Shown here: positions 5,663-63,950 of the stretch, in pieces
Layout: the number at the start of each line of letters is the position of its first letter
How positions within the stretch are numbered: position 1 is the stretch's first letter
NCBI GenBank assembly: GCA_017539045.1
Contig: JAFYHS010000012.1
Span: 109,124 to 173,123, forward strand
Length of the DNA stretch: 64,000 nucleotides
Direction of reading: 5' to 3'
Source of the DNA: Bacteroidales bacterium
GTDB lineage: Bacteria; Bacteroidota; Bacteroidia; Bacteroidales; F082
Program-made: the position numbers and the translations under genes
Notes under the pieces: generated by a model
What the model was told of the DNA's origin: nothing
Seen by the model: only the letters and a program-made list of their open reading frames with translations
Database searches by the model: none

Positions 5663-8314
5663 ATGAAAAAACTATCACTAATCCTAATGCTTTTGGCTTT
5701 CTCCTTTGGGATGAACGCCCAAGTTGAAAAGACCTTTACCTTCAATGATTATGGCGAAGGTCAAATCCTTAACGGTCAAGACGGCTGGTACGTCCGTGTA
5801 CACAGCGCAGGTAACGGCAGCATGGGTCCCATGTATACCGATTACCTTGGCCACTTCTGGGGCACCACGCCGGAAACGCCCACGGCCGACGAAACCCTGG
5901 GTGTGTTTTCGCACGCCTCCGGCACCAGTTTTGGCGACATCGCCACGCACGACATCACCCAATACGGCTTCGACTTCTCCAATGGCGGTGTCGTCGAGAT
6001 CGAATGCGACCAGCTGCGTGAGTGGTGGGGCACCCTGTTCGGCATCGGCTATGACGGCGATGGCGACGGCTCCGTCCTTCCTCCCATCATGGCAGCCCCC
6101 AATCACGCCCTCTACGAACCCATCACCCCCAATCCCAACAGCACCCTCCCCGATGGCGGCGTCTATTTTCTCCTCACGGGTAGCGACACCGATCCCCTCT
6201 TCATCAAAGGCGTGGTGTTGCCCAACAACACTCCTGCCTGCAACTTTACCCCTAACGTCACGGAAAAGAACTGGGCCCGCTATAAGGTTTCCATCGACCT
6301 GGATGCTAACGACGGCGCCGGTGCTGTCACCCTGTATGCGATGTATGATGTGCCTGGCGGCGAATGGGAAGCCGTGCCGGAATGCCAAGGAGTGAACGTA
6401 GGTCTGACTCCGGGCAGTGGCGATAAATACGACCCTGCCACATGGCACCACATCTTCATGCTCAACAGCGGCTGGTGTGGCTTCGATAACTTCACCGTTC
6501 GCCATTTCCCTGGCGGCTTGACGGCACAGTTCATCGACTTCACTGAAATCCCTGACCAGTTGGTCTACAACGAACCCATCACCCTTGAAGCCAGCGCCAC
6601 CTCGGGACTTCCTGTGACCTTTGAAGTCCTCCAAGGCCCTGCCACTATCGATGGTAACATTCTCACCCTCACCGGCGAAGAAGGCGTTGTGAAAGTACGC
6701 GCCTCACAGCCTGGCGATGGCACCCAATGGCAACCTGCCCCTGCGGTGAACCGTTCTTTCTATGTGGTCGACCCAGAGAACTACGAGCCTGAGATCACCA
6801 TCCGCCGTCCCTACGAAGGCACTAAGGTGTATATGCCCGATTTTGAAAATCCTGTGATGGTGGTGATCAGCGCTTATATCGACCATGGCTCCATCCTTAA
6901 GTTCGAAGAAGTAAAATGCAATGTCGATGGTCAAGAGCTGTATTTGAAGACCGATTATCCCAACAACCCCAACAACGGCTATTGGTACACCACCTGGACG
7001 CCTTCGGGTGAAGGTTCCTACAACATGACCGTATCCATCACCCAAACGGGTGGCAAGGTCACCACGGCTTCCAACACTTTCGATGTGACCACCGACTATG
7101 ACGACATGAACGTCTCAGCCCTCAATGGCGAGGTGGTGGTGAATACAACCTATTTTACTGCCTACGGCGAATACCCCTTCCCGACCCATGTCAACGCTTT
7201 CAATGCCATCAACTTGCATTATTTGCACAACTGCGTGAATGGTGACTGCAACACTTACGACCACCAGAGCTATCTCCGCGTGAAAAACTACCGTGGTGAA
7301 TGGGTGGAACTTTGCCGTTACATCACCCCGTTTGGTGTGGAATGCGTGGATGACCTCGATGTGACCGATTTCACCTCCGTGCTGCAAGGACTCGTCGAAT
7401 TTGAATATTATAGCGAACAGTATTCAACCGGTCAAGGTTACAACCCCACAGCCATCTTTGAATACACCAAAGGCATGCCGGAATATCCTTACGTTGATTT
7501 GCAAGAACTTTGGTATGGTAGCTATTCCTTCGGCGACTACGAGAACCTGTGCCCGCTCCCGATGCGTACAGTCGAGTTTGATCCTTGTGTCGAAAAGGCC
7601 AAGCTGCAACTCACAACCTCTGGACACAACTGGAGTGATACGGGCAACGGTGCCTACAACACGGGCAATGCCGCTGAGTTCTATGAAGCTACTCATAACA
7701 TTAATATCAATGGTGCCACAACCTACACGCAGCACCTCTGGGAAAACTGTACACCTAACCCTGCTGGTTGCCAGCCCCAAAACGGCACTTGGACTTATGC
7801 CCGTGCTGGTTGGTGCCCAGGCAGCATGACGATGGTTTGGGATTACAGCCTCGACGAATATCTCTCCGATGGCAAAGCGGATGTGCTCTATGAGTTCGAC
7901 CCGACCTACGTCGACCAATGCCACCCCAACTACCCCGACTGCGTGAGCGGCCAGAACAGCTGCCCGGATTGTACCAATTCCAGCAACCCGATCTTAAAGG
8001 TCTCCGGTAAGTTGGTGACCTACAGCCACAACACCGACATCCTGACGGAAGTTCCTGAATTGCCCGATGTGGACGCCGAACCCTTCAATGTGACCATCAC
8101 CCCCAACCCCGCGAGAGGCCAAATGACCATCACCACGGATTATGACAAAGGCAGCGCCAGCGTCGTCATCATCAACCCGCAAGGCGCCAAAGTGCGTGGC
8201 TTCAACGTGAATGGCCAGCGCACCATCGACGTGAGTGACCTGCCCTCGGGCATCTACTTTGTCCATATCATCGGTGGCAAGGTGGTGACGAGAAAGGTGA
8301 TGATTCAGAACTAA
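5663..8314 (+). CDS. Secreted PNGase F-like (peptide-N-glycosidase F domain) protein with a T9SS C-terminal sorting domain
   Basis: Signal peptide MKKLSLILMLLAFSFGMNAQ. Around nt 7200-7900 the motifs match the PNGase F sequence of Elizabethkingia as I recall it: CNTYDHQSYLRVKNYRGEWVELCRYITPF, DLDVTDFTSVLQG and TYARAGWCPGSM, against recalled GEWYEIGRFITPY, DVTDF and DRAGWCPG. The C-terminal ~75 aa (ITPNPARGQMTITT...LPSGIYFVHIIGGKVVTRKVMIQN) is a typical Por/T9SS CTD. Confidence 0.75.
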   Translation: MKKLSLILMLLAFSFGMNAQVEKTFTFNDYGEGQILNGQDGWYVRVHSAGNGSMGPMYTDYLGHFWGTTPETPTADETLGVFSHASGTSFGDIATHDITQYGFDFSNGGVVEIECDQLREWWGTLFGIGYDGDGDGSVLPPIMAAPNHALYEPITPNPNSTLPDGGVYFLLTGSDTDPLFIKGVVLPNNTPACNFTPNVTEKNWARYKVSIDLDANDGAGAVTLYAMYDVPGGEWEAVPECQGVNVGLTPGSGDKYDPATWHHIFMLNSGWCGFDNFTVRHFPGGLTAQFIDFTEIPDQLVYNEPITLEASATSGLPVTFEVLQGPATIDGNILTLTGEEGVVKVRASQPGDGTQWQPAPAVNRSFYVVDPENYEPEITIRRPYEGTKVYMPDFENPVMVVISAYIDHGSILKFEEVKCNVDGQELYLKTDYPNNPNNGYWYTTWTPSGEGSYNMTVSITQTGGKVTTASNTFDVTTDYDDMNVSALNGEVVVNTTYFTAYGEYPFPTHVNAFNAINLHYLHNCVNGDCNTYDHQSYLRVKNYRGEWVELCRYITPFGVECVDDLDVTDFTSVLQGLVEFEYYSEQYSTGQGYNPTAIFEYTKGMPEYPYVDLQELWYGSYSFGDYENLCPLPMRTVEFDPCVEKAKLQLTTSGHNWSDTGNGAYNTGNAAEFYEATHNININGATTYTQHLWENCTPNPAGCQPQNGTWTYARAGWCPGSMTMVWDYSLDEYLSDGKADVLYEFDPTYVDQCHPNYPDCVSGQNSCPDCTNSSNPILKVSGKLVTYSHNTDILTEVPELPDVDAEPFNVTITPNPARGQMTITTDYDKGSASVVIINPQGAKVRGFNVNGQRTIDVSDLPSGIYFVHIIGGKVVTRKVMIQN

Positions 8315-24111: not shown

Positions 24112-24135
24112 TGTAAAGAGCCTATTCGACACAAT

Positions 24136-24177
24136 CATTCTCAAAGGAGTCATTGCGGACTCCGATCCGCAATCTCC
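24136..24177 (+). repeat. Hairpin repeat family A, copy A1
   Basis: cattctcaaaggagtcattgcggactccgatccgcaatctcc; internal stem attgcgga/tccgcaat. Lies 27 nt upstream of GIY-YIG gene 1. Confidence 0.85.
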
Positions 24178-24204: not shown

Positions 24205-24597
24205 ATGTCACATCAAGGCTTTGTTTACATACTAACAAACAAGTACAACACAACGTTGTATATTGGTGTGACTAATGATTTAAAACGTAGAATTGCCGAA
24301 CATAAACTCCATATTAATAGTGGGTTTAGTGACAAATACAACGTTGAAAAGCTTGTATATTACGAAACCCACGAACAAATGTATGATGCTATTTCGCGAG
24401 AGAAGCAACTGAAAAATTGGCATAGAAAGTGGAAAGAGGATTTAATAAAGGAAAACAATCCTGAGTGGAATGATTTAGCTGAAAGCATCGGTTTGGATGA
24501 AGAGTATGTGCAATCAGTAAAAGAGCATTATGAGGACATGAGTACTGCTGAAGCGTCGTCCAAAAGTGTAGGAGATTGCGGATCAAGTCCGCAATGA
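24205..24597 (+). CDS. GIY-YIG nuclease family protein (small URI-domain protein, COG2827-like) with an extended C-terminal tail
   Basis: GFVYILTNKYNTTLYIGVTNDLKRRIAEH...KLVYYETHEQMYDAISREKQLKNW covers the GIY...YIG, R and E motifs. The last 9 codons and the stop are supplied by an inverted copy of hairpin repeat family A. Confidence 0.85.
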   Translation: MSHQGFVYILTNKYNTTLYIGVTNDLKRRIAEHKLHINSGFSDKYNVEKLVYYETHEQMYDAISREKQLKNWHRKWKEDLIKENNPEWNDLAESIGLDEEYVQSVKEHYEDMSTAEASSKSVGDCGSSPQ

Positions 24598-24598
24598 C
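24571..24598 (-). repeat. Hairpin repeat family A, copy A3 (inverted)
   Basis: ggagattgcggatcaagtccgcaatgac is the reverse complement of the A1 core except in the loop. Overlaps the last codons and stop of GIY-YIG gene 1. Confidence 0.85.
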
Positions 24599-24673
24599 GT
24601 TTCACGGCGAAGTATATTCAAAATGCGCGGTTATTGTTATTACAGTTAGAAAAACCTACTTAAACAAATCATT

Positions 24674-24715
24674 CATTCTCAAAGGAGTCATTGCGGACTC
24701 CAATCCGCAATCTCC
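24674..24715 (+). repeat. Hairpin repeat family A, copy A2
   Basis: Identical to A1 over 42 nt except for one loop base (g to a). Lies 30 nt upstream of rfbA. Confidence 0.85.
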
Positions 24716-25683: not shown

Positions 25684-26892
25684 ATGAAAAGAACCATCAT
25701 CATCACTGGAGGCGCTGGCTTCATCGGCAATCACGTCGTTCGCCTCTTCGTCAACAAATATCCTGAATACAAGATCATCAACCTCGACAAGTTGACCTAC
25801 GCAGGCAACCTCGCCAACCTGAAGGACATCGAAGACAAGCCGAACTACCGCTTTGTCAAGATGGACATCTGCGACTTCGAGGGTGTCTACAAGTTGATGC
25901 AGGACGAACACGTCGACGGCATCATCCACCTCGCCGCCGAGAGCCATGTGGACCGCTCCATCAAAGACCCGTTCACCTTTGCGCAGACCAATGTGATGGG
26001 CACGCTGAGCCTGCTGCAGGCTGCCAAACTCTATTGGGAAGCCCAACCAGAGCCTTGGAAAGTTAAGGTCCCTGAGCCCGTCGAAGGGCCGACCATAAAA
26101 GACGGTGCTTCGACAGGCTCAGCAACCTGCGTTCCTTGCCGCTTCTACCACATCAGCACCGATGAGGTCTATGGTGCCTTGGAGCTGACCGACCCCGAAG
26201 GCATCATGCCTCCTTTCAGCACCAAGGCCAGCAGCGGACAGCACCACTTGGCCTATGGCAGCAAGTTCTTCACCGAAGACCTGAAATACCAACCCCATAG
26301 TCCCTATAGTGCCGCCAAGGCAAGCAGCGACCACTTTGTGCGCGCCTTCCACGACACCTACGGCATGCCCACGGTGGTGACCAACTGCTCCAACAACTAC
26401 GGCCCATACCAGTTCCCCGAGAAGCTGATCCCGCTGTTCATCAATAACATCCGTCACCGCAAGCCGCTGCCTGTCTACGGCAAAGGTGAGAACGTGCGCG
26501 ACTGGCTCTATGTGGAAGACCACGCCCGCGCCATCGACCTCATCTTCCATGAAGGCAAGGTGGCCGAGACCTACAACATCGGCGGCTTCAATGAGTGGAA
26601 GAACATCGACCTCATCAAGGTGTTGATCAATACCGTTGACCGCCTGCTGGGTCGTCCCGAAGGAGCCGATATGGACCTCATCACCTATGTCACCGACCGT
26701 GCCGGACATGATATGCGCTATGCCATCGACTCGACCAAACTCCAGAAAGAACTGGGTTGGGAGCCCAGCCTGCAGTTTGAGGAGGGCATTGAGAAGACCG
26801 TCCGTTGGTATCTCGATAACCAGGAATGGATGGACAACGTGACAAGTGGTGACTATCAGAAGTACTACGACGACATGTACAAAAACAGATAA
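25684..26892 (+). CDS. rfbB: dTDP-glucose 4,6-dehydratase carrying a ~20-aa in-frame repeat-derived insertion
   Basis: IIITGGAGFIGNH...HISTDEVYG...SPYSAAKASSDHFVRAF...VTNCSNNYGPYQFPEKLIP. At 402 aa it is longer than the RmlB sequences I recall. The extra segment KVPEPVEGPTIKDGASTGSAT coincides with hairpin element B1. Confidence 0.95.
   Translation: MKRTIIITGGAGFIGNHVVRLFVNKYPEYKIINLDKLTYAGNLANLKDIEDKPNYRFVKMDICDFEGVYKLMQDEHVDGIIHLAAESHVDRSIKDPFTFAQTNVMGTLSLLQAAKLYWEAQPEPWKVKVPEPVEGPTIKDGASTGSATCVPCRFYHISTDEVYGALELTDPEGIMPPFSTKASSGQHHLAYGSKFFTEDLKYQPHSPYSAAKASSDHFVRAFHDTYGMPTVVTNCSNNYGPYQFPEKLIPLFINNIRHRKPLPVYGKGENVRDWLYVEDHARAIDLIFHEGKVAETYNIGGFNEWKNIDLIKVLINTVDRLLGRPEGADMDLITYVTDRAGHDMRYAIDSTKLQKELGWEPSLQFEEGIEKTVRWYLDNQEWMDNVTSGDYQKYYDDMYKNR
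26067..26127 (+). repeat. Palindromic repeat family B, copy B1 (inside rfbB)
   Basis: ggtccctgagcccgtcgaagggccgacc-ataaaa-gacggtgcttcgacaggctcagcaacc, with imperfectly complementary arms. Confidence 0.8.
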
Positions 26893-32393: not shown

Positions 32394-33788
32394 ATGTTCA
32401 ACAAAACTGACCCATCCTACTTTGACGGTCCATGGACCTTCGAGAAGACCGAACACGCCGTGCTCGGCCTCTGCAAGATCATCGATCGTTATGCCCATAA
32501 GCTGACACTGGAAGACCTGCAGAACGACTCACGTTGCGCCCGCATTCCGGACCTCAGCCTCGATAGGGTGCAGGAGGTCATCGCCGCCGTGGAAGCCAAG
32601 CTCTGGCGTGGTGCTAAGTTCTTCGAGAACGAGGTGATCTATCACACTGGTCCGCATCACGACGACATCATGTTGGGTCTCATGCCCTTCATCAACAGGC
32701 AGTTGAGGACGCCTACCAATCAGGTGCATTTCGCCATCATGACCTCGGGTTATCACTCCGTCACCGATGAATTCCTTCAGAATGCCTTGGAAGACACCTT
32801 GGACTACCTGCATCAAGGCCGCATCCAGATGGTGCTTTACCCCGATTTCTTTGAGCGGGGCTACCGTTTCAAGCAGGAGAAGGACATCCACCATTACCTC
32901 GACAACGTAGCCCGCAAAAACCCCGATGAGATGCGTCGTGGCTTCTGCCATCGCATCCTTCGCGATGCCGTAGGGCTGTGGGGGCTGAAGAACGTCGCCG
33001 ATGTGGAAGCACGCTTCAGGATGGAGATCGAAAACCTCAAGGAGGGTAAGCCCAACAGCAGTGAGCTCCAGAAGCTCAAAGGCGAGATCCGTGAGTTTGA
33101 AGAGGAGCTCGTCTGGGCCTATGCCGGCACCGCCTTGGACCATATCCATCATCTGAGGTTAGGGTTGTATGAAAGTAAAAGCGAGGTGCCTGAGCCTGTC
33201 GAAGGCCCGACTAATAATGAACCGGCCCTTCGACAAGCTCAGGGACCTTGGTCTCCCAACCGTCAGCGTGACGTCGAGCCCATCCTCAATCAATTGCGTG
33301 CGCTGAAGCCCACCGTCATCACCGTAGCCATTGACTCGGAGGGTCAAGGACCCAACACGCACTACAAGGTCATGCAGAGCATCGCCGAGGCCGTCAGGCT
33401 GTGGGGCGAGGAGGCCGACCTCAGCCAGCTGAGGATCTTCGGCTACCGTAACGTGTGGTCGACCTTCCATCCTGCTGAGGCCAACGTATACGTGCCCGTG
33501 TCGCTCAACGCTTTTGCAGTGTTCGAGAAGGCCTTCAAAGACAGTTACCTGACGCAATATAAGGCAGAGTTTCCCAATCCCGACTTCGACGGACCTTTCA
33601 GCGAGCTGGCGGAGCAGATTTGGGTGAAGAACTATAAGGATATCCAGTTCATCCTCGGGAAGAACTTCTTCTACGAAAACGACCACCCGCTCATTCGCGC
33701 CACGCATGGACTGATTTTCTTGAAGGAAATGGACGCGAAGGACTTTGTGGGCTTGGCGGAGGAGATGAAACAAAAGATAAATGTGTAG
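32394..33788 (+). CDS. PIG-L/LmbE-like domain protein (related to the C-terminal half of long Bacteroidales NagB-type proteins), carrying an in-frame repeat insertion
   Basis: HTGPHHDDIMLG resembles the PIG-L HPDD motif, and DSEGQGPNTHYK resembles the second conserved block as I recall it. The segment VPEPVEGPTNNEPALRQAQGPW coincides with hairpin element B2. Confidence 0.45.
   Translation: MFNKTDPSYFDGPWTFEKTEHAVLGLCKIIDRYAHKLTLEDLQNDSRCARIPDLSLDRVQEVIAAVEAKLWRGAKFFENEVIYHTGPHHDDIMLGLMPFINRQLRTPTNQVHFAIMTSGYHSVTDEFLQNALEDTLDYLHQGRIQMVLYPDFFERGYRFKQEKDIHHYLDNVARKNPDEMRRGFCHRILRDAVGLWGLKNVADVEARFRMEIENLKEGKPNSSELQKLKGEIREFEEELVWAYAGTALDHIHHLRLGLYESKSEVPEPVEGPTNNEPALRQAQGPWSPNRQRDVEPILNQLRALKPTVITVAIDSEGQGPNTHYKVMQSIAEAVRLWGEEADLSQLRIFGYRNVWSTFHPAEANVYVPVSLNAFAVFEKAFKDSYLTQYKAEFPNPDFDGPFSELAEQIWVKNYKDIQFILGKNFFYENDHPLIRATHGLIFLKEMDAKDFVGLAEEMKQKINV
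33185..33247 (+). repeat. Palindromic repeat family B, copy B2 (inside the PIG-L-like gene)
   Basis: ggtgcctgagcctgtcgaaggcccgac-taataatgaa-ccggcccttcgacaagctcagggacc. The arms pair at 19 of 21 positions by my count. Confidence 0.85.
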
Positions 33789-33791
33789 TTT

Positions 33792-33850
33792 AAGCCGCCT
33801 ATGTCATTCCAAGCGGAGGATGTGCGACTGGAATCTATAGGCGGCGGCTT
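33792..33850 (+). repeat. Hairpin repeat family C, copy C-c
   Basis: aagccgcctatgtcattccaagcggaggatgtgcgactggaatctataggcggcggctt; outer stem gccgcctat/ataggcggc and inner stem attcca/tggaat. Confidence 0.8.
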
Positions 33851-33873: not shown

Positions 33874-34155
33874 TTGAATCAGTATTGGGTATATATGATG
33901 CAGAGTGCTAATGGACGAGCACTATATACAGGAGTCACAAACGACCTAGTTCGTCGTGTTGGAGAGCATAAAGAGGGCAAAGGGTCCTTTTTTACTGCAA
34001 AGTATAAATGTCATAAATTGGTTTATTATGAAGATTTTGGTTTGATGGACCAAGCCATTCTTAGAGAGAAGGAAATAAAGAATATGACACGGGCAGATAA
34101 AGAAAAGCTTATTGATACTATCAATCCACAACGACTAGATCTATTAGAACAATAA
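33874..34155 (+). CDS. GIY-YIG nuclease family protein (small URI-domain protein, COG2827-like)
   Basis: YWVYMMQSANGRALYTGVTNDLVRRVGEH...KLVYYEDFGLMDQAILREKEIKNM; 93 aa. The TTG start from the track preserves the first beta-strand. Sits between family C hairpins. Confidence 0.8.
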   Translation: MNQYWVYMMQSANGRALYTGVTNDLVRRVGEHKEGKGSFFTAKYKCHKLVYYEDFGLMDQAILREKEIKNMTRADKEKLIDTINPQRLDLLEQ

Positions 34156-34160
34156 AGATA

Positions 34161-34211
34161 GCCTTCCATGTCATTCCAAGTGGAGGTTGTGTGACTGGAA
34201 TCTATGGAAGG
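34161..34211 (+). repeat. Hairpin repeat family C, copy C-d
   Basis: gccttccatgtcattccaagtggaggttgtgtgactggaatctatggaaggc. The core is nearly identical to C-c, and the outer stem differs but still pairs. Confidence 0.8.
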
Positions 34212-34251
34212 CGGCATGAAAGAAAAGACATTAAATATATGACGGTATTAT

Positions 34252-45353: not shown

Positions 45354-46004
45354 ATGTTCCTCAAATTCCTCTTCGACCGCCTCCTTTCCTTCCTTGGCCT
45401 TATCGTCCTTTCGCCGGTGATGCTGGTCGTGGCTATCCTCATCATGGTTAAGATGGGCGGCCCCGTGCTGTTCAAACAGCAACGCATAGGTAAGGATGGC
45501 AAGCAGTTTACTTTGGCAAAGTTCCGAACGATGAAGGCTGACCATGGCGGATCGTCGGTGAGCGTGGCGGGAGAGAGCCGCATCACCCCCTTAGGCGCCA
45601 AATTGCGTAAATACAAGCTGGATGAGCTGCCCGAGCTGTGGAACGTGCTCAGAGGCGACATGAGCTTCGTCGGCCCGCGACCCGATGTGCCTGGCTATGC
45701 TGATAGGCTGGAAGGCGACGACCGCGAGGTCTTGCTGTTGCGCCCCGGCATCACAGGACCCGCCTCGCTGAAGTACCGCAACGAAGAAGAAATGATCGCC
45801 GAGTATGTCGCACAAGCCAAAACACAAGGCGATTCCCGCTCAGAACAAGAGATAGCACTTTGGTATAACGACAACATGATTTGGCCCGACAAAGTGCGTA
45901 TCAACCGATATTACCTGCATCACTATTCCTTTGGCATGGATTTGAAGATGATCCTTGCCACCGTGCTGGGACGTCATATTTTGTATAACGGAGAAACCAT
46001 CTAA
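45354..46004 (+). CDS. Undecaprenyl-phosphate sugar phosphotransferase (small PglC/WcfS-type initiating transferase)
   Basis: LSPVMLVVAILIMVKMGGPVLFKQQRIGKDGKQFTLAKFRTM...DELPELWNVLRGDMSFVGPRP is the bacterial sugar transferase signature; 216 aa. Confidence 0.9.
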   Translation: MFLKFLFDRLLSFLGLIVLSPVMLVVAILIMVKMGGPVLFKQQRIGKDGKQFTLAKFRTMKADHGGSSVSVAGESRITPLGAKLRKYKLDELPELWNVLRGDMSFVGPRPDVPGYADRLEGDDREVLLLRPGITGPASLKYRNEEEMIAEYVAQAKTQGDSRSEQEIALWYNDNMIWPDKVRINRYYLHHYSFGMDLKMILATVLGRHILYNGETI

Positions 46005-47407
46005 TGATCAAAAAACGCATCTACCTCTGCCTCGCTCATATGAGCGACGCAGGCCTCGAACAGAAATATATACAAGAGGCCTTCGACACCAACTGGGTGG
46101 TGCCGCTGGGACCCAATGTCAATGGGTTTGAAAAGGACCTGGAGTCCTTTGTGAATGAGATTAAGGTCCCTGAGCTTGTCGAAGGGCCGACCTTCAATGA
46201 CGGCATTTCGACAGGCTCAACGACCTGCTTAAACAAACGTGTTGTTGCTCTCTCCGCCGGCACGGCGGCCATCCATCTCGCCTTAATCGCCTGCGGCGTG
46301 GGCCCTGGCGACGAGGTCATCGTGCAGTCGTTCACCTTCTGCGCCTCGTCCAACCCTATCACCTACCTCGGCGCGACCCCCGTCTTCGTCGACAGCGAGA
46401 AGGACTCGTGGAACATCGACCCCGAGCTGATGGAAGAGGCCATCCGCGACCGCATCGCCAAGACGGGCCGTAAGCCCAAGGCCATCGTGCCCGTGGCGCT
46501 CTATGGCATGCCTTACGACATCGACCGTATCATGGAGATTGCCAACCGCTACGACATCCCCGTCATCGAAGACGCCGCCGAAGGCTTCGGCAGCCGCTGG
46601 AAGGGACAGGTGCTGGGCACCTTCGGCCGTTATGGCGTACTCTCCTTCAACGGTAACAAGATGATCACCACCTCGGGTGGCGGCGCACTCATCTGCCCCG
46701 ACACACAGGCTTGGCAGCGCATCATGTGGCTGGCCACACAAGCCCGCGAGGCCTACCCTTATTACCAACATGAGGCCATTGGCTACAACTACCGCATGTC
46801 GAACATCTGCGCCGGCATCGGCCGTGGACAGATGACCGTCGCCAATGACCATATCAACCACCACAAGCATGTGCAGAAGATGTATGAGGAGCTGCTGGCT
46901 GGTGTGCTGGGCATACATGTCCACTCGCAGCCTTGTTCCCTTTACGACCGTCATGCCGGACTTGATCCGGCATCTCATGAGATTGCGGGTCAAGCCCGCA
47001 ATGACGGTATGCAGGGTGAGAAGTACGACAGTAACTATTGGTTATGCACCATCACCCTCGACCCAAGCCTGCACGTCAAAGGACAAGAAAACGCCTATAA
47101 GACCGTTATACAAGGTGCGGTAGGTGGTGCGGCAGGCGTGGTTCATGCCAGCAAGAGCGCCCACACCGACTGCGAGCCCAACGCCAACGTGGAGGCCTTG
47201 CGCGTCATCCTCGACCAGGCGGGCATCGAGGCAAGGCCCTTATGGAAGCCCATGCATAAACAGCCCGTCTATAAAGACGCTCCTGCCTATGTCAACGGCG
47301 TCAGCGAAAGCCTCTTCAAGGTAGGCATGTGCCTGCCCAGTGGCCCCTGTGTCAGCGACGAGGACGTGGACTATATCGTAACGTGTATCAAAAACGCTAT
47401 CATCTAA
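46004..47407 (+). CDS. DegT/DnrJ/EryC1-family sugar aminotransferase (PglE/WcfR-like) carrying two in-frame repeat-derived insertions
   Basis: EQKYIQEAFDTNWVVPLGPNV...ALSAGTAAIHLAL...SFNGNKMITTSGGGAL (PLP Lys)...YNYRMSNI...RPLWKPMHKQPVY. At 467 aa it is about 90 aa longer than family members I recall. Confidence 0.9.
   Translation: MIKKRIYLCLAHMSDAGLEQKYIQEAFDTNWVVPLGPNVNGFEKDLESFVNEIKVPELVEGPTFNDGISTGSTTCLNKRVVALSAGTAAIHLALIACGVGPGDEVIVQSFTFCASSNPITYLGATPVFVDSEKDSWNIDPELMEEAIRDRIAKTGRKPKAIVPVALYGMPYDIDRIMEIANRYDIPVIEDAAEGFGSRWKGQVLGTFGRYGVLSFNGNKMITTSGGGALICPDTQAWQRIMWLATQAREAYPYYQHEAIGYNYRMSNICAGIGRGQMTVANDHINHHKHVQKMYEELLAGVLGIHVHSQPCSLYDRHAGLDPASHEIAGQARNDGMQGEKYDSNYWLCTITLDPSLHVKGQENAYKTVIQGAVGGAAGVVHASKSAHTDCEPNANVEALRVILDQAGIEARPLWKPMHKQPVYKDAPAYVNGVSESLFKVGMCLPSGPCVSDEDVDYIVTCIKNAII
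46165..46225 (+). repeat. Palindromic repeat family B, copy B3 (inside the aminotransferase gene)
   Basis: ggtccctgagcttgtcgaagggccgacc-ttcaatga-cggcatttcgacaggctcaacgacc. Confidence 0.8.
46950..47005. repeat. Composite of two family A-like hairpins in opposite orientation, located inside the aminotransferase CDS
   Basis: gtcatgccggacttgatccggcatc + tcatga + gattgcgggtcaagcccgcaatgac. Translated in frame as RHAGLDPASHEIAGQARNDG. Confidence 0.8.
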
Positions 47408-57875: not shown

Positions 57876-60800
57876 ATGAAATACAAGGGTATCATCATCG
57901 CTGCGGCAACGCTTTTGGTCGTTGGCGCCCTCTCTTTTGCGTCGACGAACACTTTGACGAAAGTCCCGGCAGCACCTAAAAACAATTATGAAGACATGTG
58001 GAAAAAAGTAAAGGAAAACCTCGACAAGAACCTGCCTGAATCGGCAGAGAAGGAGCTGGATGCCATTGAGCAACAGGCTGCAAAAGACAAAAATGACATA
58101 CAACTGCTGAAGACCTACCTCTATCGACAAAAGATCTTCCAGTTCACCGTCGAGGAAGACCCCGACCAACACTTCATCCAATATGCCGAGTCGAAGATCG
58201 GGCAACTGGACGAGGTGTGCAACGCCCTCTTGCACGAAGAAATCGCCAAGGCTTACGCCAACTATCTGGAGTCGAACGAATGGACTATCAACGAAAACCT
58301 GCCCATCGATGGCGATATCTCCAAGGTAGAGATGAAAAATTGGGACAAGGAGAGTTTCAAGACGCGCATCAACCAACACTATGACGAGGCGCTGAAGCCC
58401 ATCGAGGCACTGAAAAAAGCCAAGACCGCAGATTTCATGGAGCTGTTTGAAAACAAGAACAACAACGAGGAAAACATCGAATACGAAGCCTCGCTCTTCG
58501 AGTTTATGTTCCACCGCGTGGCCAAATATTATCAAGAAGAGGCCAACGCCGACCAAGCCGAGGGCGACACCGAAAAGTGGTGGCTGCCCGCCAAGGACTT
58601 CGTGAAAGCCGACTTGGGCGATTTCGACAACCCGCTTGTCAAATGTCTGAAAATCTATCAGGAACTGATTGCCTACAACCTCAAAAACTCGAATGAGGAT
58701 GTTTTGATTTACAACGATTTCAAGCGTTTTGAATTCGTCAACAACACCCTCGGCATCCTTCTCCATTACACGCAATACCAAGTCGCAATGGAGGACCTGA
58801 AGGCGCAACACAAAGAAAACCCACTTTCTGCTGAAATCACAGCATTGATAGCGCGAAACTTGATGAACCAATACGAGAACAATATCGAGGACAGCACTTA
58901 TTTCGACAACTACAAGAAAGCCAAGACGATGTGCGAAGAGGCCATCGCCAAGTTCCCGAAGTCACAGGGCGCGAAAAACTGCGAAAACCTCATCAAACGC
59001 ATTGAGGAGCCGCAAATCGACCTGACTTTGAATAAAGTGCAACTGCCCAACGAGGCCATCCCCGCCGTGTTGGAATACAAAAACACGACTGCACCTTATT
59101 ATAGAATCGTGAAAGTCAGCGAGAAAGAATTGAGCAAATTGAATACTATGCAAAAGGAGGATTTGCTCAAGGAATTGAACAAAAAAATGCCCGTCGCGGA
59201 GCAGGACCTCATGTTGCCCGCTGAAACCGACTATCGCAGCCACAGCACCTTGATTGCCTTGCCCGCTTTGGAGGAAGGCATCTACTACCTGACTGCCACC
59301 ACCAAACAAGGTGTCAAGAGTGAGGATAAAACGTTGGTACTCACTTTCCAAGTCTCCAACCTCGGTTATATCGTTGACCAAAAGGACGAAAAAATGACCG
59401 TAGTGACCGTGGACCGCAAAACGGGGAAAACCGTGGAAGGCGTCACCGTGGAACTCTACCGTCGCGAGTGGGACTACAAAGCCCGCGAACACAAGACCAT
59501 CATCATCGCCACGATGAAGTCCGACAAAAACGGTCGCGCCGTGCTTGATGGCAAAGTGGGCAGCAACAATTCCTTTGGCATCAACCTGCGCAAAGGCGAT
59601 GACAACCTGCTTGCGAACAACCAATTCAGCCTCAATGAGCGATACAAGAACAACAACGAGGTGTACGAAACGAAACTCTTCACCGACCGCGCCATCTATC
59701 GTCCCGGTCAGACCGTTTACTTCCAAGGTATCGTGACGCGCCGCCAAGGTGAAGACTTGAGCCTTGTGAACAATTATTCGGAAAAGGTTTCTTTCCGCGA
59801 TGCCAACTGGCAAGAGATCAGTTCGGCCAACTTTAACACCGACGAATACGGCTCATTCAGCGGCTCTTTTGTCATCCCCTCCGACAGGCTGAACGGCGTG
59901 TTCCACCTCAACGCCAATCGTGGCAGCGTGACCATCCGTGTGGAGGAATACAAACGCCCGACTTTCGAGGTGACTTTTGAACAGCCGAAAGAGCAATACA
60001 AACTGAACCAAGAAGTTACAGTGCGCGGCGACGTGAAAGCCTACGCCGGTTTCGGCTTGGACGATGTGGAATACAGCTACCGTGTCGTCCGCAAGACCTC
60101 CTTCCCGTGGCGTTGCTGGTGGTGGTGGTACCCAGTCGTCGATGACGAGCAAATCGCCCACGGCAAGGCCCGCACCGACGAAAACGGCAAGTTCGCCATC
60201 ACCTTCAACCTGAAGCCTTCCAAGACCATCGCGCCGGAGAAACAGCCTATGTTCACCTACGAAATCGAGGTGACCGCCACGAGCAAGCAGGGCGAAACCC
60301 ACGCCGACACTTACAGCATTCGTGCGGGCTACAACGAAATCGCCATCAGCACCGACTTGCCCCGCACCATCGAGAAATCAGACATCGGCAAGTACCAAAT
60401 CACTGTGAGCAACCTCAGTTGGCAGCCCGCCAAGAGCCGCATTTCGCGGAAGATTTACCGCTATGACGACAAGGCCAAGATTAATTATTTCGAGGCGATG
60501 CAACATTTGGAAGTCCTTGACCGACAATTGCATAGTGATGAACAATTGAACAAACTTTTCCCTGAATACAGTTTCTATGACAAGCGAACCAAGACTTTGG
60601 TCGATGAGGCCGAAATTATGGTGGACGACAAGGCCAAGTTCTTGGAAGGCAAGACTTTGGAATCTGGGAATTATGTCATGGAACTCAAGAGTTTGGACGA
60701 TCCCTTGGCTGTAATGACGGAGGAATTCACTATTTACGAGAATGAAGCCAAAAAGATGCCTTATACCGCTATGGTTTGGAGCGATGTGGACAAATCGACC

Positions 60801-63800
60801 GCCCATCCCGGCGACGAAATCCATTTCAGCATCGGCAGTTCGGCCAAGGATGTGGACATTTGGGTGCAGTTGCTCCATGGCGACGAAATCCGTCTGGACA
60901 AGAAAATCACCGTCAGCAACAGTGTGCAGACCTTTACTTATAAGGTGACCGAAGGCGACCGTGGTGGCCTCAATTTCCGTTATGTCCTCTTGAAGGAAAA
61001 TGCTTTCAGGACTGGTGACGATCATATTTCCGTGCCTTTCGACAACTATGATTTGGACGTGAAATTGGCCACCGTGCGCGACAAACTCAACCCCGGTGCT
61101 GAAGAGACTTGGGAAGTGACCGTCAACGACTACAAGAAAAAACCTTTGGAGGCCGCTTTACTGGCTGGAATGTATGATGCCTCATTGGATGAATTTGAAC
61201 GCAATTACTGGAGTTTCAGTTTGTCGCCTTGGGGCCCACGCAGTTTCCGTTTTTCCACCTGTGCGCACGACTTCACCTCATCCAACACGGGGCTGGAATA
61301 CTTTTATTTCGCTGAACTCTTCAACTTCAGCCTGCCTTCTGATGCGCCCTTCTTTGATTTTGGATATGGCTTCGGAATGCGCCGTTATAGAAAAGGTGGG
61401 CGTGTGCTTTATGATGTTGTGGAAGAATATGCCGCACCGATGGAAGCGGGAGCAGCGTTAGAGAAATCCTCCAATTCAGTGGATTACGAAATCCCCTTGG
61501 TGGCACAAAATGCTGCGGATGAAGAAATGGTCGAAATAACGAAACAAGAAGGCGTTTATCTTTATGAATCAGAAGGACAGAACGAAAAAACCGAAGAATT
61601 CGCCGAGCCCACCCTCCGCGAGAACTTCAACGAGACCGCCTTCTTCTTCCCGCAACTGCGCACGAACAACGACGGTAGCGCGACCTTCAGCTTCACCATG
61701 CCCGATGCCCTCACACGTTGGCGCCTGATGCTGTTGGCTTACACCAAGGACCGCAAGACTGGCAGCAAGGACTACACTTTCACTTCGTCGAAGCCCGTGA
61801 TGATTATGGCCGACATGCCGCGCTATATGTACGACAACGACGAACTATGGTTTGTGGCCAACGTCATCAACACGGGCGATGAGCCTGTCACGCCCAAGGC
61901 GAAACTCGAGATTTTTGATGCGGGCACGATGCAACCTGTGAATTTGATTGTTATGGACGGCCCTTCGACAGGCTCAGGGACCTACACGATACCGATGGAA
62001 ACCATACAGCCCGGTCGCAGCAAGGAAGTACGCTGGAAAGTGAAGGGACAATATGATTTGAGTCTGTTGGCCTTCCGTTTCACGGCCTACGCGGGACAGT
62101 TCAGTGATGCCGAGCAGCATCTCCTGCCCGTGTTGAGCAGCGAAATCTTCATGACGCAAACCCTGCCCATCACCGTGAAGGCCGAGACCGAGAAAACCTT
62201 CGACTTCGAGGCCATCGCCAACCCCGACAGCCACGAGCGCGACTACAGCCTGACCTTGAACTTCAGCACCAACCCCGTGTGGTACGCCGTGCAGGCCCTG
62301 CCTTACCTGGCCAACGTCAGCACCGACCGCGCCGAGACGGCCTTCTATGTGTTCTATGCCAACACGCTTTCGTCCTACATCGCCGACCACATCCCGAACC
62401 TCTTGAACTACATCAAGAAATGGCAAATCGAGACGCCCGATGCCCTGCTCTCGCAACTCGAGAAAGACCAAGACTTGAAAGCCATCATGTTGCAAGAAAC
62501 GCCGTGGGTACTTGAGGCCAAGAGCGAAACCGAGCAACGTAGCCGCATCGCCAACCTGTTTGAAATCAACACGCTGCGCGGCCAACAAACCCGTGCGCTG
62601 CAACTCATCCAGCAGAAACAGAAATACAATGGCGGCTGGCCTTGGATGGATGGAATGCCCGAGAGTCCCTACATCAGCACCTATATCTTGAGCGGCTTCG
62701 GCAAGTTGCAGAAGATGGGCGCTTGGAGTTCGTTGAGCAAGGCCGACCAAAACACCGCCCAAAGCATCTGCGACAAGGCCGTGCGTTACCTCGAATACGA
62801 AGTGGCCGAGACCTATCGCAACATGAAGCGTTACAGCAAAGGCAAAGACTGGCCCATCGGTTCCAGCACTTTGAACGAACTCTATGCCTTGAGTTTCTTC
62901 AAGGAGCAAAACTCTGACAAGGACTTTGCCACGGCCAAGAAATACTACCTTGGCAGCCTCGACAAGGAGTGGACTTCGTTCAATTTCAACCAACGCTCGA
63001 AGGGAGCCTTGGTGCTCTACCGCAACGGCAACGAAAAGACCGCCAAGCTGATGATTCAGAGTTTCAAGGAATGTGCCCAGAAAAACGAGCAAATCGGCAT
63101 GTACTGGCCGAAGAAATACTTCTCGTTTGAATCGCATATCGCCACCCACGCCAACATCATGGCCGCCTTCGCCGAGATTGACCAGAACCAGGAGATGATT
63201 GACGAACTGCGTGTGTGGCTGCTGACCCAGAAGCAGACCAACAAATGGGAAAACTCCGCCTCCACCGCCGATGCCATCTATGCCCTGCTCATGCGCGGCA
63301 GCGATTGGTTCGAGGAAGGGAAGGAAGTCATCCTGCGCTTCGGCAACACGCCTATCAGCACCGAGGGCGGCGTAGCCGGCACGGGCTTCATCCAACGCCG
63401 TTGGAACGCCAACGAAGTGACACAAGACATGCGTCAACTCACCGTCAACAACCCGACCCCGCACTTGGTCTGGGGCGGTCTGTTCCGCCAGTATTTCGTC
63501 CCGATTGACGAAGTCAAGAGCGACGAGTCGGGCTTTACCATCAAGCGCGAGTTGTTTGTGGAGACGGTCACTGACAAGGGCAAGAAACTTGTTCCCGTGG
63601 AGAAGCAAGCCTTGAAAGTCGGTGACAAACTGACTGTGAAGATCACCTTCACCAGCCAGCAAGACATGAGTTTCGTCTTCATCAAGGACCTCCGCGCCGC
63701 CGGTTTCGAGCCGATAGAGCAGATCTCGCGCTATGAATACAACGACCGCATGAGCTACTACCAGAGCAACACCGACACCGACATGGAGTTCTTCATCGAG

Positions 63801-63950
63801 TTCCTGCCCAAGGGCACGCATCAGGTGGAATACAGCATGTTCGTCACCAAGGAAGGCTACCTCAACAACGGCTACGCCTTGATACAGTGTCAGTATGCGC
63901 CGGAGTTCAGTGCGTATTCTGACGGCATGCGCGTGAAGGTAGGGGAGTAA
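57876..63950 (+). CDS. Alpha-2-macroglobulin family protein (large MG-domain protein; no CxEQ thioester seen)
   Basis: 2024 aa with a signal peptide, repeated MG-like beta-sandwich segments, a TED-like region (QKYNGGWPWMDGMPESPYISTYILSGFGKL) and a C-terminal receptor-binding-like domain. Confidence 0.8.
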   Translation: MKYKGIIIAAATLLVVGALSFASTNTLTKVPAAPKNNYEDMWKKVKENLDKNLPESAEKELDAIEQQAAKDKNDIQLLKTYLYRQKIFQFTVEEDPDQHFIQYAESKIGQLDEVCNALLHEEIAKAYANYLESNEWTINENLPIDGDISKVEMKNWDKESFKTRINQHYDEALKPIEALKKAKTADFMELFENKNNNEENIEYEASLFEFMFHRVAKYYQEEANADQAEGDTEKWWLPAKDFVKADLGDFDNPLVKCLKIYQELIAYNLKNSNEDVLIYNDFKRFEFVNNTLGILLHYTQYQVAMEDLKAQHKENPLSAEITALIARNLMNQYENNIEDSTYFDNYKKAKTMCEEAIAKFPKSQGAKNCENLIKRIEEPQIDLTLNKVQLPNEAIPAVLEYKNTTAPYYRIVKVSEKELSKLNTMQKEDLLKELNKKMPVAEQDLMLPAETDYRSHSTLIALPALEEGIYYLTATTKQGVKSEDKTLVLTFQVSNLGYIVDQKDEKMTVVTVDRKTGKTVEGVTVELYRREWDYKAREHKTIIIATMKSDKNGRAVLDGKVGSNNSFGINLRKGDDNLLANNQFSLNERYKNNNEVYETKLFTDRAIYRPGQTVYFQGIVTRRQGEDLSLVNNYSEKVSFRDANWQEISSANFNTDEYGSFSGSFVIPSDRLNGVFHLNANRGSVTIRVEEYKRPTFEVTFEQPKEQYKLNQEVTVRGDVKAYAGFGLDDVEYSYRVVRKTSFPWRCWWWWYPVVDDEQIAHGKARTDENGKFAITFNLKPSKTIAPEKQPMFTYEIEVTATSKQGETHADTYSIRAGYNEIAISTDLPRTIEKSDIGKYQITVSNLSWQPAKSRISRKIYRYDDKAKINYFEAMQHLEVLDRQLHSDEQLNKLFPEYSFYDKRTKTLVDEAEIMVDDKAKFLEGKTLESGNYVMELKSLDDPLAVMTEEFTIYENEAKKMPYTAMVWSDVDKSTAHPGDEIHFSIGSSAKDVDIWVQLLHGDEIRLDKKITVSNSVQTFTYKVTEGDRGGLNFRYVLLKENAFRTGDDHISVPFDNYDLDVKLATVRDKLNPGAEETWEVTVNDYKKKPLEAALLAGMYDASLDEFERNYWSFSLSPWGPRSFRFSTCAHDFTSSNTGLEYFYFAELFNFSLPSDAPFFDFGYGFGMRRYRKGGRVLYDVVEEYAAPMEAGAALEKSSNSVDYEIPLVAQNAADEEMVEITKQEGVYLYESEGQNEKTEEFAEPTLRENFNETAFFFPQLRTNNDGSATFSFTMPDALTRWRLMLLAYTKDRKTGSKDYTFTSSKPVMIMADMPRYMYDNDELWFVANVINTGDEPVTPKAKLEIFDAGTMQPVNLIVMDGPSTGSGTYTIPMETIQPGRSKEVRWKVKGQYDLSLLAFRFTAYAGQFSDAEQHLLPVLSSEIFMTQTLPITVKAETEKTFDFEAIANPDSHERDYSLTLNFSTNPVWYAVQALPYLANVSTDRAETAFYVFYANTLSSYIADHIPNLLNYIKKWQIETPDALLSQLEKDQDLKAIMLQETPWVLEAKSETEQRSRIANLFEINTLRGQQTRALQLIQQKQKYNGGWPWMDGMPESPYISTYILSGFGKLQKMGAWSSLSKADQNTAQSICDKAVRYLEYEVAETYRNMKRYSKGKDWPIGSSTLNELYALSFFKEQNSDKDFATAKKYYLGSLDKEWTSFNFNQRSKGALVLYRNGNEKTAKLMIQSFKECAQKNEQIGMYWPKKYFSFESHIATHANIMAAFAEIDQNQEMIDELRVWLLTQKQTNKWENSASTADAIYALLMRGSDWFEEGKEVILRFGNTPISTEGGVAGTGFIQRRWNANEVTQDMRQLTVNNPTPHLVWGGLFRQYFVPIDEVKSDESGFTIKRELFVETVTDKGKKLVPVEKQALKVGDKLTVKITFTSQQDMSFVFIKDLRAAGFEPIEQISRYEYNDRMSYYQSNTDTDMEFFIEFLPKGTHQVEYSMFVTKEGYLNNGYALIQCQYAPEFSAYSDGMRVKVGE
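61957..61982 (+). repeat. Palindromic repeat family B, right-arm-only copy B4 (inside the alpha-2-macroglobulin gene)
   Basis: gacggcccttcgacaggctcagggacc matches the right arms of B1-B3. No left arm is present upstream. Confidence 0.65.

Follow-up and report, generated by a model that had tools for sequence, protein, structure and literature searches.

A probable REPIN/BIME-like palindromic repeat inserted in frame in a loop of a Bacteroidales PIG-L-like enzyme

In the bacterial interspersed mosaic elements (BIMEs) of Escherichia coli, repetitive extragenic palindromes (REPs) occur as two types, Y and Z. The Rickettsia palindromic elements (RPEs) were reportedly presented by Ogata et al. in 2000 as 'Selfish DNA in protein-coding genes of Rickettsia' (via PMC3733652 and PMC1166351), and in-frame palindromic 'selfish DNA' in proteins has so far been a curiosity mostly of Rickettsia and of a few REP families. 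We know of no description of RPEs in which different repeat families alternate at one loop. REP doublets forming hairpins (REPINs) have been described (Bertels and Rainey, 2011; PMC3116915), and in-frame intragenic REP copies in loops are an occasional, documented occurrence (PMC3733652, PMC6006769), as are REPs inside tnpA_REP genes of subclass 2.4 (PMC6006769). The CGTC-tagged REP superfamily of Alphaproteobacteria, Sphingomonads included, and Bacteroidetes (Di Nocera et al., 2013; PMC3733652) is defined by a CGTC (TGTC or CCTC) tag, an 8–9-bp stem starting from two A-T pairs, a loop of 4–5 nt and a CCA-like tail; its members are mostly head-to-head dimers, have no dedicated transposase and, where GTAG or CGTC REP dimers are intragenic, encode 20–30 amino acids (PMC3733652). 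Here we compare with these systems a palindromic element, B2, which lies in a PIG-L-like gene of a gut or rumen Bacteroidales bacterium, within a stretch of 64,000 nt (contig JAFYHS010000012.1 of assembly GCA_017539045.1, positions 109,124 to 173,123, forward strand) that is referred to throughout as the window. We put at roughly three in four the probability that B2 is an in-frame copy of a selfish or structural repeat of the REPIN/BIME-like kind, lying in a tolerant loop that is a hot spot.

An earlier note, made from the letters of the window, had described B2 as a palindrome inserted in frame in the PIG-L-like gene, and its measurements were reproduced when they were recomputed: of the 21 positions in the arms CCTGAGCCTGTCGAAGGCCCG and CGGCCCTTCGACAAGCTCAGG, 19 are paired (33185–33247), and the open reading frame (ORF) of 464 aa (32394–33788) remains open through B2, which is translated as VPEPVEGPTNNEPALRQAQGPW. 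Extended to 26 nt each, with 13 nt between them, the arms are 88% complementary. As RNA, the 83-nt region of B2 folds at –45.2 kcal/mol, compared to –21.3 ± 3.1 kcal/mol for dinucleotide shuffles (z = –7.8; 0 of 200 as good), and a hairpin scan of the whole window returned B2 and one terminator as the only long hairpins. An Rfam scan of the window and seven element-bearing loci at the gathering threshold returned tRNAs only. The repeat family to which B2 belongs, here called family B, is represented in the window by four loci (B1 to B4; Table 1) when arms with at most 3 mismatches are sought, where none is expected by chance, and all four lie inside plus-strand ORFs with the frame kept. Profile matches from Pfam and NCBIfam to the RfbB and DegT proteins, hosts of B1 and B3, are interrupted at the insert and so fall into two parts. 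In B1, B2 and B3 alike, as had been noted, the left arm reads PE[PL]VEGP, whereas the right arm reads ALRQAQG in B2, ASTGSA in B1 and ISTGST in B3, because B2 has an arm-to-arm distance of 34 nt and the other two have one of 32 nt. The right arms differ also in sequence: that of B1, GGTGCTTCGACAGGCTCAGCAACCT, is of the commonest type (GTGC/GCA), that of B3, GGCATTTCGACAGGCTCAACGACCT, is a further variant, and those of B2 and B4 are of a rare perfect-complement type.

Alignments of orthologous proteins and of their DNA show that the loop of the PIG-L/LmbE-like enzyme in which B2 lies was ancestrally short and that B2 was inserted into it, which bears out the central claim of the earlier note. 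More than 5000 relatives of the 464-aa protein were found, and the best 120 of them (79–95% identical), compared for length, range from 441 to 503 aa, with nearly all of the variation at the B2 site. The ancestral state was read from 80 orthologous loci out of metagenomes (loci outside the window are numbered here with an L); orthology of the host-gene loci is secure because the neighbouring genes are conserved, the order being Glucosamine_iso, GFO_IDH, UDP-glucose dehydrogenase, the host gene and PnuC. Orthologues at 48–57% identity all have a fixed short loop, GFYTGDIFTPQPxxxRD, and eight close orthologues, among them L127 at 90% identity to the query, are likewise empty, with a loop of matching length, GFYS[NH]xE[GD]FPNR[QE]RD. 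These two groups provide the presence/absence polymorphism that the earlier note had proposed to look for, and they speak against the segment being part of a conserved domain. At the DNA level, empty alleles read TAT AGC AAT GGG GAA GGC TTC / CCC AAC CGT across the site, and the window reads TAT GAA AGT AAA AGC GAG GTG, then the insert (CCTGAG...GGGACCTTGGTCT), then CCC AAC CGT. The 18 nt to the left of the palindrome have been replaced (GTAAAAGCGAGGTG), not just interrupted. Since this replaced stretch resembles the A-rich leader (...GTAAAAGCTAAGGTC) that precedes other Bacteroidales copies, the remodelled left flank is probably part of the inserted unit, which would make that unit longer than the palindrome. 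Comparison of filled with empty alleles at the PIG-L and RfbB sites revealed no target-site duplication. The RfbB site, occupied by B1 in the window, is empty in five orthologues, carries exchanged arm types in two others and holds two unrelated fillers.

To place the insert in the host protein, an AlphaFold2 model was built from 55 orthologues (pTM 0.76). Its top Foldseek matches are LnmX, diacetylchitobiose deacetylase and MshB (5bmo, 8bgn, 4xm1, 1q74), with probabilities of 0.97–1.0 and TM scores of 0.44–0.52 on the target; as these are PIG-L family deacetylases, the label 'PIG-L-like' of the earlier note is reasonable. The sequence GPHHDD is invariant at residues 86–91, where the family motif is an N-terminal metal-binding (A/P)H(P)DD. 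The NCBIfam model PRK02122 matches the C-terminal part of the protein only, below cut-off, and neither Pfam nor a sequence search of the PDB gave a match to the host protein. The insert corresponds to residues of about 260–286, and in the model residues 260–284 form coil with pLDDT<50 between a strand (251–255) and a helix (290–304), so that the 22 inserted residues are predicted to be a disordered extension of a surface loop; for the enzyme they are most likely neutral passengers. The gene tolerates B2 because the net insert has a length divisible by three and no stop occurs in the frame that is used; in the core motif CCTGAGC, TGA falls in just one of the six frames.

The architecture of family B was deduced from 56 full elements of many genomes, with spacers of about 10–45 nt, in which the left arm is held constant by the search pattern. 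In the right arms, TTCGACRRGCTCA is flanked by the tetranucleotides GTGC/GCAC in 22 cases, GGGC/GCCC in 11, GTCC/GGAC in three, GTGG/CCAC in two and ATGG/CCAT in one, and an exact complement of the left arm (GCCC/GGG) occurs in 1 of the 56, namely B2 itself. The earlier note had called B2 the best-preserved copy of its family; it is indeed the most self-complementary, but self-complementarity is not the canonical state of family B. Right-arm variants keep their own 5-bp stem and break the pairing with the left arm: counted over right arms (n = 46), 93.9% of cells are paired, compared to 75.4 ± 1.7% in shuffles, both partners have changed in four of the five pairs, and covariation scores 0.42 compared to 0.09 in shuffles (0 of 500 reach it), slid partners giving at most 0.046. 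Conversely, when orthologues were compared, the variable YY/RR positions of the two long arms showed no covariation with each other, which leaves the long hairpin without covariation support. These results show that the unit of family B is a stem-loop in which 5 bp enclose a loop of 11 nt; the loop sequence, GAGCYYGTCGA or its complement, hardly varies from phylum to phylum. In a full element, two such units of ~21–26 nt, in inverted orientation and separated by a short spacer, form a heterodimer. Because compensatory changes in the usual right arm preserve the small stem of that arm, B1 and B3 represent the canonical asymmetric form and are not decayed copies. Other arrangements of the arms exist; in a betaproteobacterial metagenome-assembled genome (MAG; L019, 3783–3951) and a Vulcanimicrobiota MAG (L007, about 7500–7598), left arms are arrayed head-to-tail in tandem with a period of about 37 nt.

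The distribution of the family was surveyed by scanning one genome per species (596 Gb) for the core CCTGAGCYYGTCGAAGGSCCG. At least 120 loci matched, where by our own estimate about two would be expected by chance under uniform composition and fewer than ten when GC-rich genomes are allowed for. Among the matches listed are isolates of Sphingopyxis, Porphyrobacter, Sphingomonas, Sphingobium, Hephaestia, Microbacterium and Rathayibacter, closed Dehalococcoidia chromosomes (Chloroflexota), Betaproteobacteria, Acidobacteria, Binatia, Anaeromyxobacter, Saccharibacteria and Peribacteria, and many rumen and gut Bacteroidales MAGs; over these the core is conserved in at least 8 phyla, and no Rickettsiales appear among their titles. 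The flanks of the element are lineage-specific, CCGTTCGC...GCGAACGG in Proteobacteria and Chloroflexota and GGTC...GACC in Bacteroidales and Actinomycetes (in full, (T)AAGGTC / GACCT in Bacteroidales), which argues against contamination. With regard to vehicles, phage records contain no family B match, and the plasmid matches are confined to the ~1 Mb replicons (chromids) of Sphingobium, in each of which as many as 14 copies occur, all of them outside annotated features, and two partial matches. Every one of the 46 arms present in 407 kb of related Bacteroidales DNA falls within an ORF of 150 aa or longer, although these arms represent ~6–7 independent sites and are not significantly above coding density; among loci sampled by arm presence only, about 12 of 32 arms are well inside long ORFs. 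Pfam assigned those ORFs to ten unrelated families: an FGE-sulfatase domain protein, a Tricorn-like protease, a PHP phosphoesterase, DNA polymerase X (Saccharibacteria), topoisomerase I (Pseudomonadales MAG), a radical-SAM enzyme, diphosphomevalonate decarboxylase, an NqrF-like reductase, a solute-binding protein and an EEP nuclease. The sense-strand readings PEPVEG or LSLSKG stand to GPSTGSG, ALRQAQ or RPFD as 10:19, close to the ~2:3 expected if insertion were random and the TGA frame the sole filter.

We further analyzed the age of the element at the PIG-L site, where eleven orthologues carry it in full, always with a right arm of the perfect type and with a loop of 13 or 28 nt. These two length classes, which differ by 15 nt or five codons, have few intermediates (L002, L128, L135, L146 and L161 versus the window, L126, L130, L134 and L156). 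Among the 28-nt loops homology is recognisable and the sequence has freely diverged. In the arms, third positions are 80% identical at codons for the same amino acid (554 of 693 comparisons, pairwise and uncorrected for phylogeny), whereas the rest of the gene has a synonymous identity of 62%, and none of its 208 other 14-codon windows reaches the value of the arms (mean 0.62, sd 0.065, maximum 0.77). As the arms were conserved synonymously while the loops diverged, their complementarity reflects constraint rather than youth, and the alignments therefore indicate that the element at the PIG-L site is old, with arms held constant at the nucleotide level. The earlier note had taken the high complementarity as a sign of recent insertion, a reading that fails on both its rarity in the family and the fact that the B2 form is common to orthologues that are ~62% identical synonymously.

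The peptide does not follow the same rule. In L136, L137, L149 and L155, the left arm at the PIG-L site is read in another frame, as SLSLSKGP. At the RfbB site, L161 (6834–6886) and L133 (9028–9080) differ from the window (26066–26128) in that the arm types are exactly swapped, YY/RR positions included, and the insert reads VAEPVEAP...GPSTGSGT instead of VPEPVEGP...GASTGSAT; the loop, ACC-N6-GACGG, retains its orientation despite the arm swap, and a simple inversion of the whole element is therefore no explanation. Judged by these alignments, the conserved object is shown to be the nucleic acid and not the peptide. The RfbB loop has other occupants as well, a tandem AATGCGG-type repeat translated as RNAECGMRNAEF in L160 and an unrelated DPDFRLPSSIF segment in L162; this loop, too, accepts several kinds of repeat.

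At the PIG-L loop, the states observed are the full element, its left half, its right half, nested arms, family A (a second repeat family, described below), composites and the empty loop. In a tree of the host gene from which the loop was left out, the tips carry these states intermixed: L126 (full) and the window have the empty L127 as their sister, L152 (empty) lies by L156 (full), and L132 (family B, nested) lies by L140 (composite). Flanking DNA is 95–99.5% identical within those pairs of neighbours and the difference is confined to 60–120 nt at the loop, which shows, within the loci compared, that the PIG-L loop is a hot spot with fast turnover. The RfbB site shows the same behaviour. Filled alleles share a non-palindromic left flank (TATGAAAGTAAAAGCGAGGTG/C in the window, L126 and L130), and for this reason we infer that much of the patchiness comes from short-patch allelic replacement of an old cassette and not from repeated fresh transposition. 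It is plausible that the lineage of the window gained its filled allele within about 5% DNA divergence of L127, and for such a gain short-patch allelic replacement is more likely than fresh transposition.

Two sets of observations bear on where new arms land. Six nested forms were found, in each of which an inner arm sits at the apex of the 11-nt loop of an outer arm, for example CCTGAGCCTGT/TCCTGAGCCTGTCGAAGGACG/CGAAGGGCCG and GCCCTTCGAC/ACCCTTCGACAAGCTCAGGGATC/GCTCAGGGAC. In addition, both empty sites, PIG-L and RfbB, have GAAGGC exactly at the junction, and the empty RfbB site, CCTGAG-N6-GAAGGC, looks like an arm in the same frame. These patterns suggest insertion into or beside arm-like hairpins. 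B2 itself is probably an intragenic, frame-preserving copy of a non-autonomous repeat of the REP/REPIN/BIME type. Its conserved loop might be read as single-stranded DNA (or RNA) by a trans-acting factor, and such reading could account for both the spread of the family and the constraint on its sequence. New arms would land preferentially in the apex of existing arms or beside arm-mimicking GAAGGY motifs, and filled alleles would then pass between related lineages by short-patch homologous replacement. Our confidence in any specific mobilisation mechanism is low.

Several points weigh against reading B2 as a mobile repeat of this kind. When 4400 ORFs from 120 loci were clustered all against all, no ORF family recurred beside the element. 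No ORF with the HUH/Y motif of REP-associated tyrosine transposases (RAYTs) is present in the 1.6 Mb scanned, which amount to ~8 kb per genome, so that a single-copy gene would usually be missed. GIY-YIG nucleases, tried as the mobiliser of family B in Bacteroidales, were rejected, given that none of 15 GIY-YIG genes has a B arm within 400 nt. Classical transposition is not demonstrated, there being no target-site duplication and no precise junction between empty and filled states, the latter because the 18 nt left of the palindrome were replaced rather than interrupted. The GAAGGY target idea is weak, based as it is on two sites in two genes. Much of the patchy distribution may reflect recombination rather than mobility of the element, and the conservation of the arms, which the pairwise test measures without allowing for phylogeny, could stem from concerted evolution or from a function at the level of the host rather than from recognition by a mobiliser.

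The alternatives differ in how they account for the near-perfect arms and for their conservation. That the arms are near-perfect because B2 is young, the product of recent de novo transposition by an active element, has in its favour the closest empty allele: L127 is sister to L126 plus the window, with about 95% identical flanks, so that in this small clade either the filled state was recently gained or the empty state was recently regained. We consider this origin quite unlikely, however, as the perfect-type element occurs in the same frame and with the same left flank in L130, L002, L134, L161 and others, whose host genes are 80–88% identical, the loops have diverged and the arms have not, there is no target duplication, and a fresh copy drawn from the asymmetric pool of B1 and B3 would not be expected to be of the perfect type. 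Another rival, which does without selection, is concerted evolution, whereby arms are overwritten from other copies (by ectopic gene conversion or repair after hairpin cleavage) or new insertions enter an old element. It would fit the nested arms exactly at loop apexes, the RfbB arm types swapped under an unchanged loop orientation, and the rapid turnover of the sites, and we regard it as possible though doubtful: almost every orthologue with an element at the PIG-L site has retained the rare right arm of the perfect type, while the asymmetric type dominates elsewhere, which argues for descent at the site over resampling from the genomic pool.

Constraint could also come from a structure exapted by the host, an mRNA hairpin (slowing the ribosome between folding units, or affecting mRNA stability) or a site for gyrase or a nucleoid protein as in E. 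coli BIMEs. Synonymous conservation is higher in the arms than anywhere else in the gene, the RNA is predicted to fold into a very stable hairpin (–45 kcal/mol), and in the model the element lies exactly between a beta-strand and the next helix, all of which would fit; yet close relatives are empty at the same site, or have another repeat family or half an element there, and the long arms show no compensatory changes at YY/RR, the covariation backing instead the small stems within each arm, so that this explanation is an unlikely one. That the 22 residues are an original and functional part of the protein, with the palindrome incidental, has in its favour the intact ORF and the presence of the segment in many orthologues, but we give it next to no credence: the empty alleles refute it, the segment being absent from all distant and eight close orthologues, unrelated genes and phyla contain this DNA too, lineages differ in the frame in which they read the site, and the segment is predicted to be disordered. 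The reading of B2 as a REPIN/BIME-like repeat in a tolerant hot-spot loop is the one to which the odds of roughly three in four given at the outset apply.

The surroundings of the element contain further repeats and small genes (Table 1). Family A conforms to the CGTC-type REP definition of PMC3733652 and is found at the same PIG-L loop in L004/L005 and L167, as GGAGTCATTGCGGACTCCGATCCGCAATCTCC, translated GVIADSDPQSP, which matches the window copies at 24132 and 24670. The DegT/LegC aminotransferase gene (46004–47407) contains inserts from two repeat families, B3 and, at 46947–47008, an in-frame head-to-head dimer of family A, ACCGTCATGCCGGACTTGATCCGGCATCTCATGAGATTGCGGGTCAAGCCCGCAATGACGGT, translated DRHAGLDPASHEIAGQARNDG. 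The first GIY-YIG gene of the window is bracketed by direct copies of a third hairpin family (33793–33848 and 34160–34215, 84% identical). Its protein is 98.9% identical in L126, L127 and L137, the neighbouring host gene of L137 being only 81% identical, and in L132 and L142 the GIY-YIG gene stands on the opposite side of the host gene; from these comparisons, gene and hairpins look like a mobile cassette. GIY-YIG genes surrounded by A-type repeats, as the second one of the window is, occur likewise in L150 and L161, and the association may be of note for CGTC REPs, a dedicated transposase for which has been reported lacking (PMC3733652). In a Sphingomonas contig (L078, 3103–3392), a GIY-YIG-like ORF (E = 1.5e-6 to the second GIY-YIG of the window) ends 43 nt from a B arm, a single case that may be coincidence. 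Small 23S_rRNA_IVP / bAvd-like genes are found in L001 (4332–5226) and L002 (1544–1903 and 6918–7292), in intergenic slots of the same polysaccharide locus where the window has a GIY-YIG gene or nothing; such slots seem to collect small accessory genes.

Table 1. Positions in the window of element B2, its host gene, the other family B copies and neighbouring features.
Feature	Positions	Strand	Remarks
Host gene	32394–33788	+	464-aa PIG-L/LmbE-like putative deacetylase; polysaccharide-biosynthesis neighbourhood
B2, imperfect palindrome	33184–33248	+	65 nt, inside the PIG-L/LmbE-like ORF
B2 left arm	33184–33209	+	AGGTGCCTGAGCCTGTCGAAGGCCCG; holds family core CCTGAGCYYGTCGAAGGSCCG; translated (V)PEPVEGP
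B2 loop	33210–33222	+	ACTAATAATGAAC; 13 nt; translated TNNE
B2 right arm	33223–33248	+	CGGCCCTTCGACAAGCTCAGGGACCT; perfect-complement type; translated PALRQAQGP
Net inserted segment	33189–33254	+	PEPVEGPTNNEPALRQAQGPWS; 66 nt = 22 codons relative to empty alleles L127 and L001 (DNA comparison)
Remodelled left flank	33171–33188	+	GAAAGTAAAAGCGAGGTG (ESKSEV) in place of AGCAATGGGGAAGGCTTC (SNGEGF) of empty alleles
B1, canonical asymmetric	26066–26128	+	in frame in dTDP-glucose 4,6-dehydratase RfbB (ORF 25684–26892); translated VPEPVEGPTIKDGASTGSAT
B3, canonical asymmetric	46164–46226	+	in frame in DegT/LegC-type aminotransferase (ORF 46004–47407); translated VPELVEGPTFNDGISTGSTT
B4, lone right arm	61958–61983	+	CGGCCCTTCGACAGGCTCAGGGACCT; in frame in bacterial alpha-2-macroglobulin (ORF 57876–63950); translated DGPSTGSGT
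Family A, direct copies	24132–24177, 24670–24715		GTCATTGCGGA-loop-TCCGCAAT; CGTC/AGTC tag
Family A, inverted copy	24572–24599		
First GIY-YIG nuclease gene	33874–34155		93 aa; directly downstream of host gene
Second GIY-YIG nuclease gene	24205–24597		130 aa, 48% identical to the first; bracketed by family A repeats

Loops of biosynthetic enzymes that apparently turn over fast, as cassettes, between near-identical strains matter for strain typing and for the origin of new protein loops, and in annotation these segments yield spurious 'hypothetical' peptides and split domain matches. The occurrence of one core in many phyla and in unrelated genes implies either unusually easy horizontal spread or a widely shared constraining factor, and neither option is explained by the picture of REPs co-evolving with a lineage-specific RAYT. 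The covariation, by pointing to a small hairpin with a conserved loop as the selected object, offers a concrete substrate with which to seek the enzyme. A wider proposal, which we put forward tentatively and hold to be improbable as it stands, is that family B represents a so far undescribed mobile or structural DNA module of bacteria at large. It would be a stem-loop of ~21 nt whose 11-nt loop is kept the same in Bacteroidota, Chloroflexota, Proteobacteria, Actinomycetota and CPR bacteria through being read by a broadly distributed single-strand-specific enzyme other than a classical RAYT or by a universal host factor, and whose landing in existing hairpins would give rise to hypervariable enzyme-loop cassettes, with one repeat family taking the place of another in strains that otherwise share about 99% identity.

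Transposable elements known from other settings resemble family B in part. Elements of the IS200/IS605 type make no target duplication and insert beside a short specific motif in single-stranded DNA. Family B is similar to miniature inverted-repeat transposable elements (MITEs) and to palindrome-associated transposable elements (PATEs) derived from IS200/IS605 in being small, non-autonomous and equipped with hairpin-forming ends. Its arms could pass for the terminal inverted repeats of a DDE-type MITE, but the target-site duplication is absent; compared to PATEs, its arms are mutual complements and not two similar subterminal hairpins on one strand, and no parent insertion sequence was found. 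The resemblance to RPEs lies in a palindrome placed in frame in many unrelated genes with the ORF intact (four genes of the window, ten Pfam families elsewhere), in a peptide added at a position compatible with the fold (a surface loop, by prediction only), and in copies that are both coding and non-coding. RPE-1, with which the comparison is by description only, is longer, AT-rich and restricted to Rickettsia, whereas family B is GC-rich and present in many phyla.

The closest likeness is to REPs, REPINs and BIMEs. In common with these, family B has a short imperfect palindrome that folds on itself, two inverted units which with a spacer form a larger hairpin, pair members that differ systematically (heterodimers, as with Y and Z), singlets and tandem clusters, and dispersed copies without target-site duplication. 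It departs from them in having neither the GT[AG]G motif (the RAYT guide) nor a CGTC foot at the base of the hairpin, in a stem of only 5 bp below an unusually long conserved loop of 11 nt, with no RAYT found in the about 8 kb per genome covered, and in a core kept over at least 8 phyla where REP families usually co-evolve with a lineage-specific RAYT. With its GC-rich 5-bp stem and 11-nt loop it also falls outside the CGTC REP definition, and in Bacteroidales a large share of its copies is intragenic, whereas REP copies are predominantly extragenic. Its peptide signatures are absent from the intragenic-REP tables of Di Nocera et al. (PMC3733652), a full-text literature search for the arm sequences and for the peptides FDKLRANG and LRQAQGE returned no paper, and a search by concept likewise gave no report of the family. 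Family B is apparently undescribed, and it joins the architecture of REPs and REPINs to a coding habit like that of RPEs.

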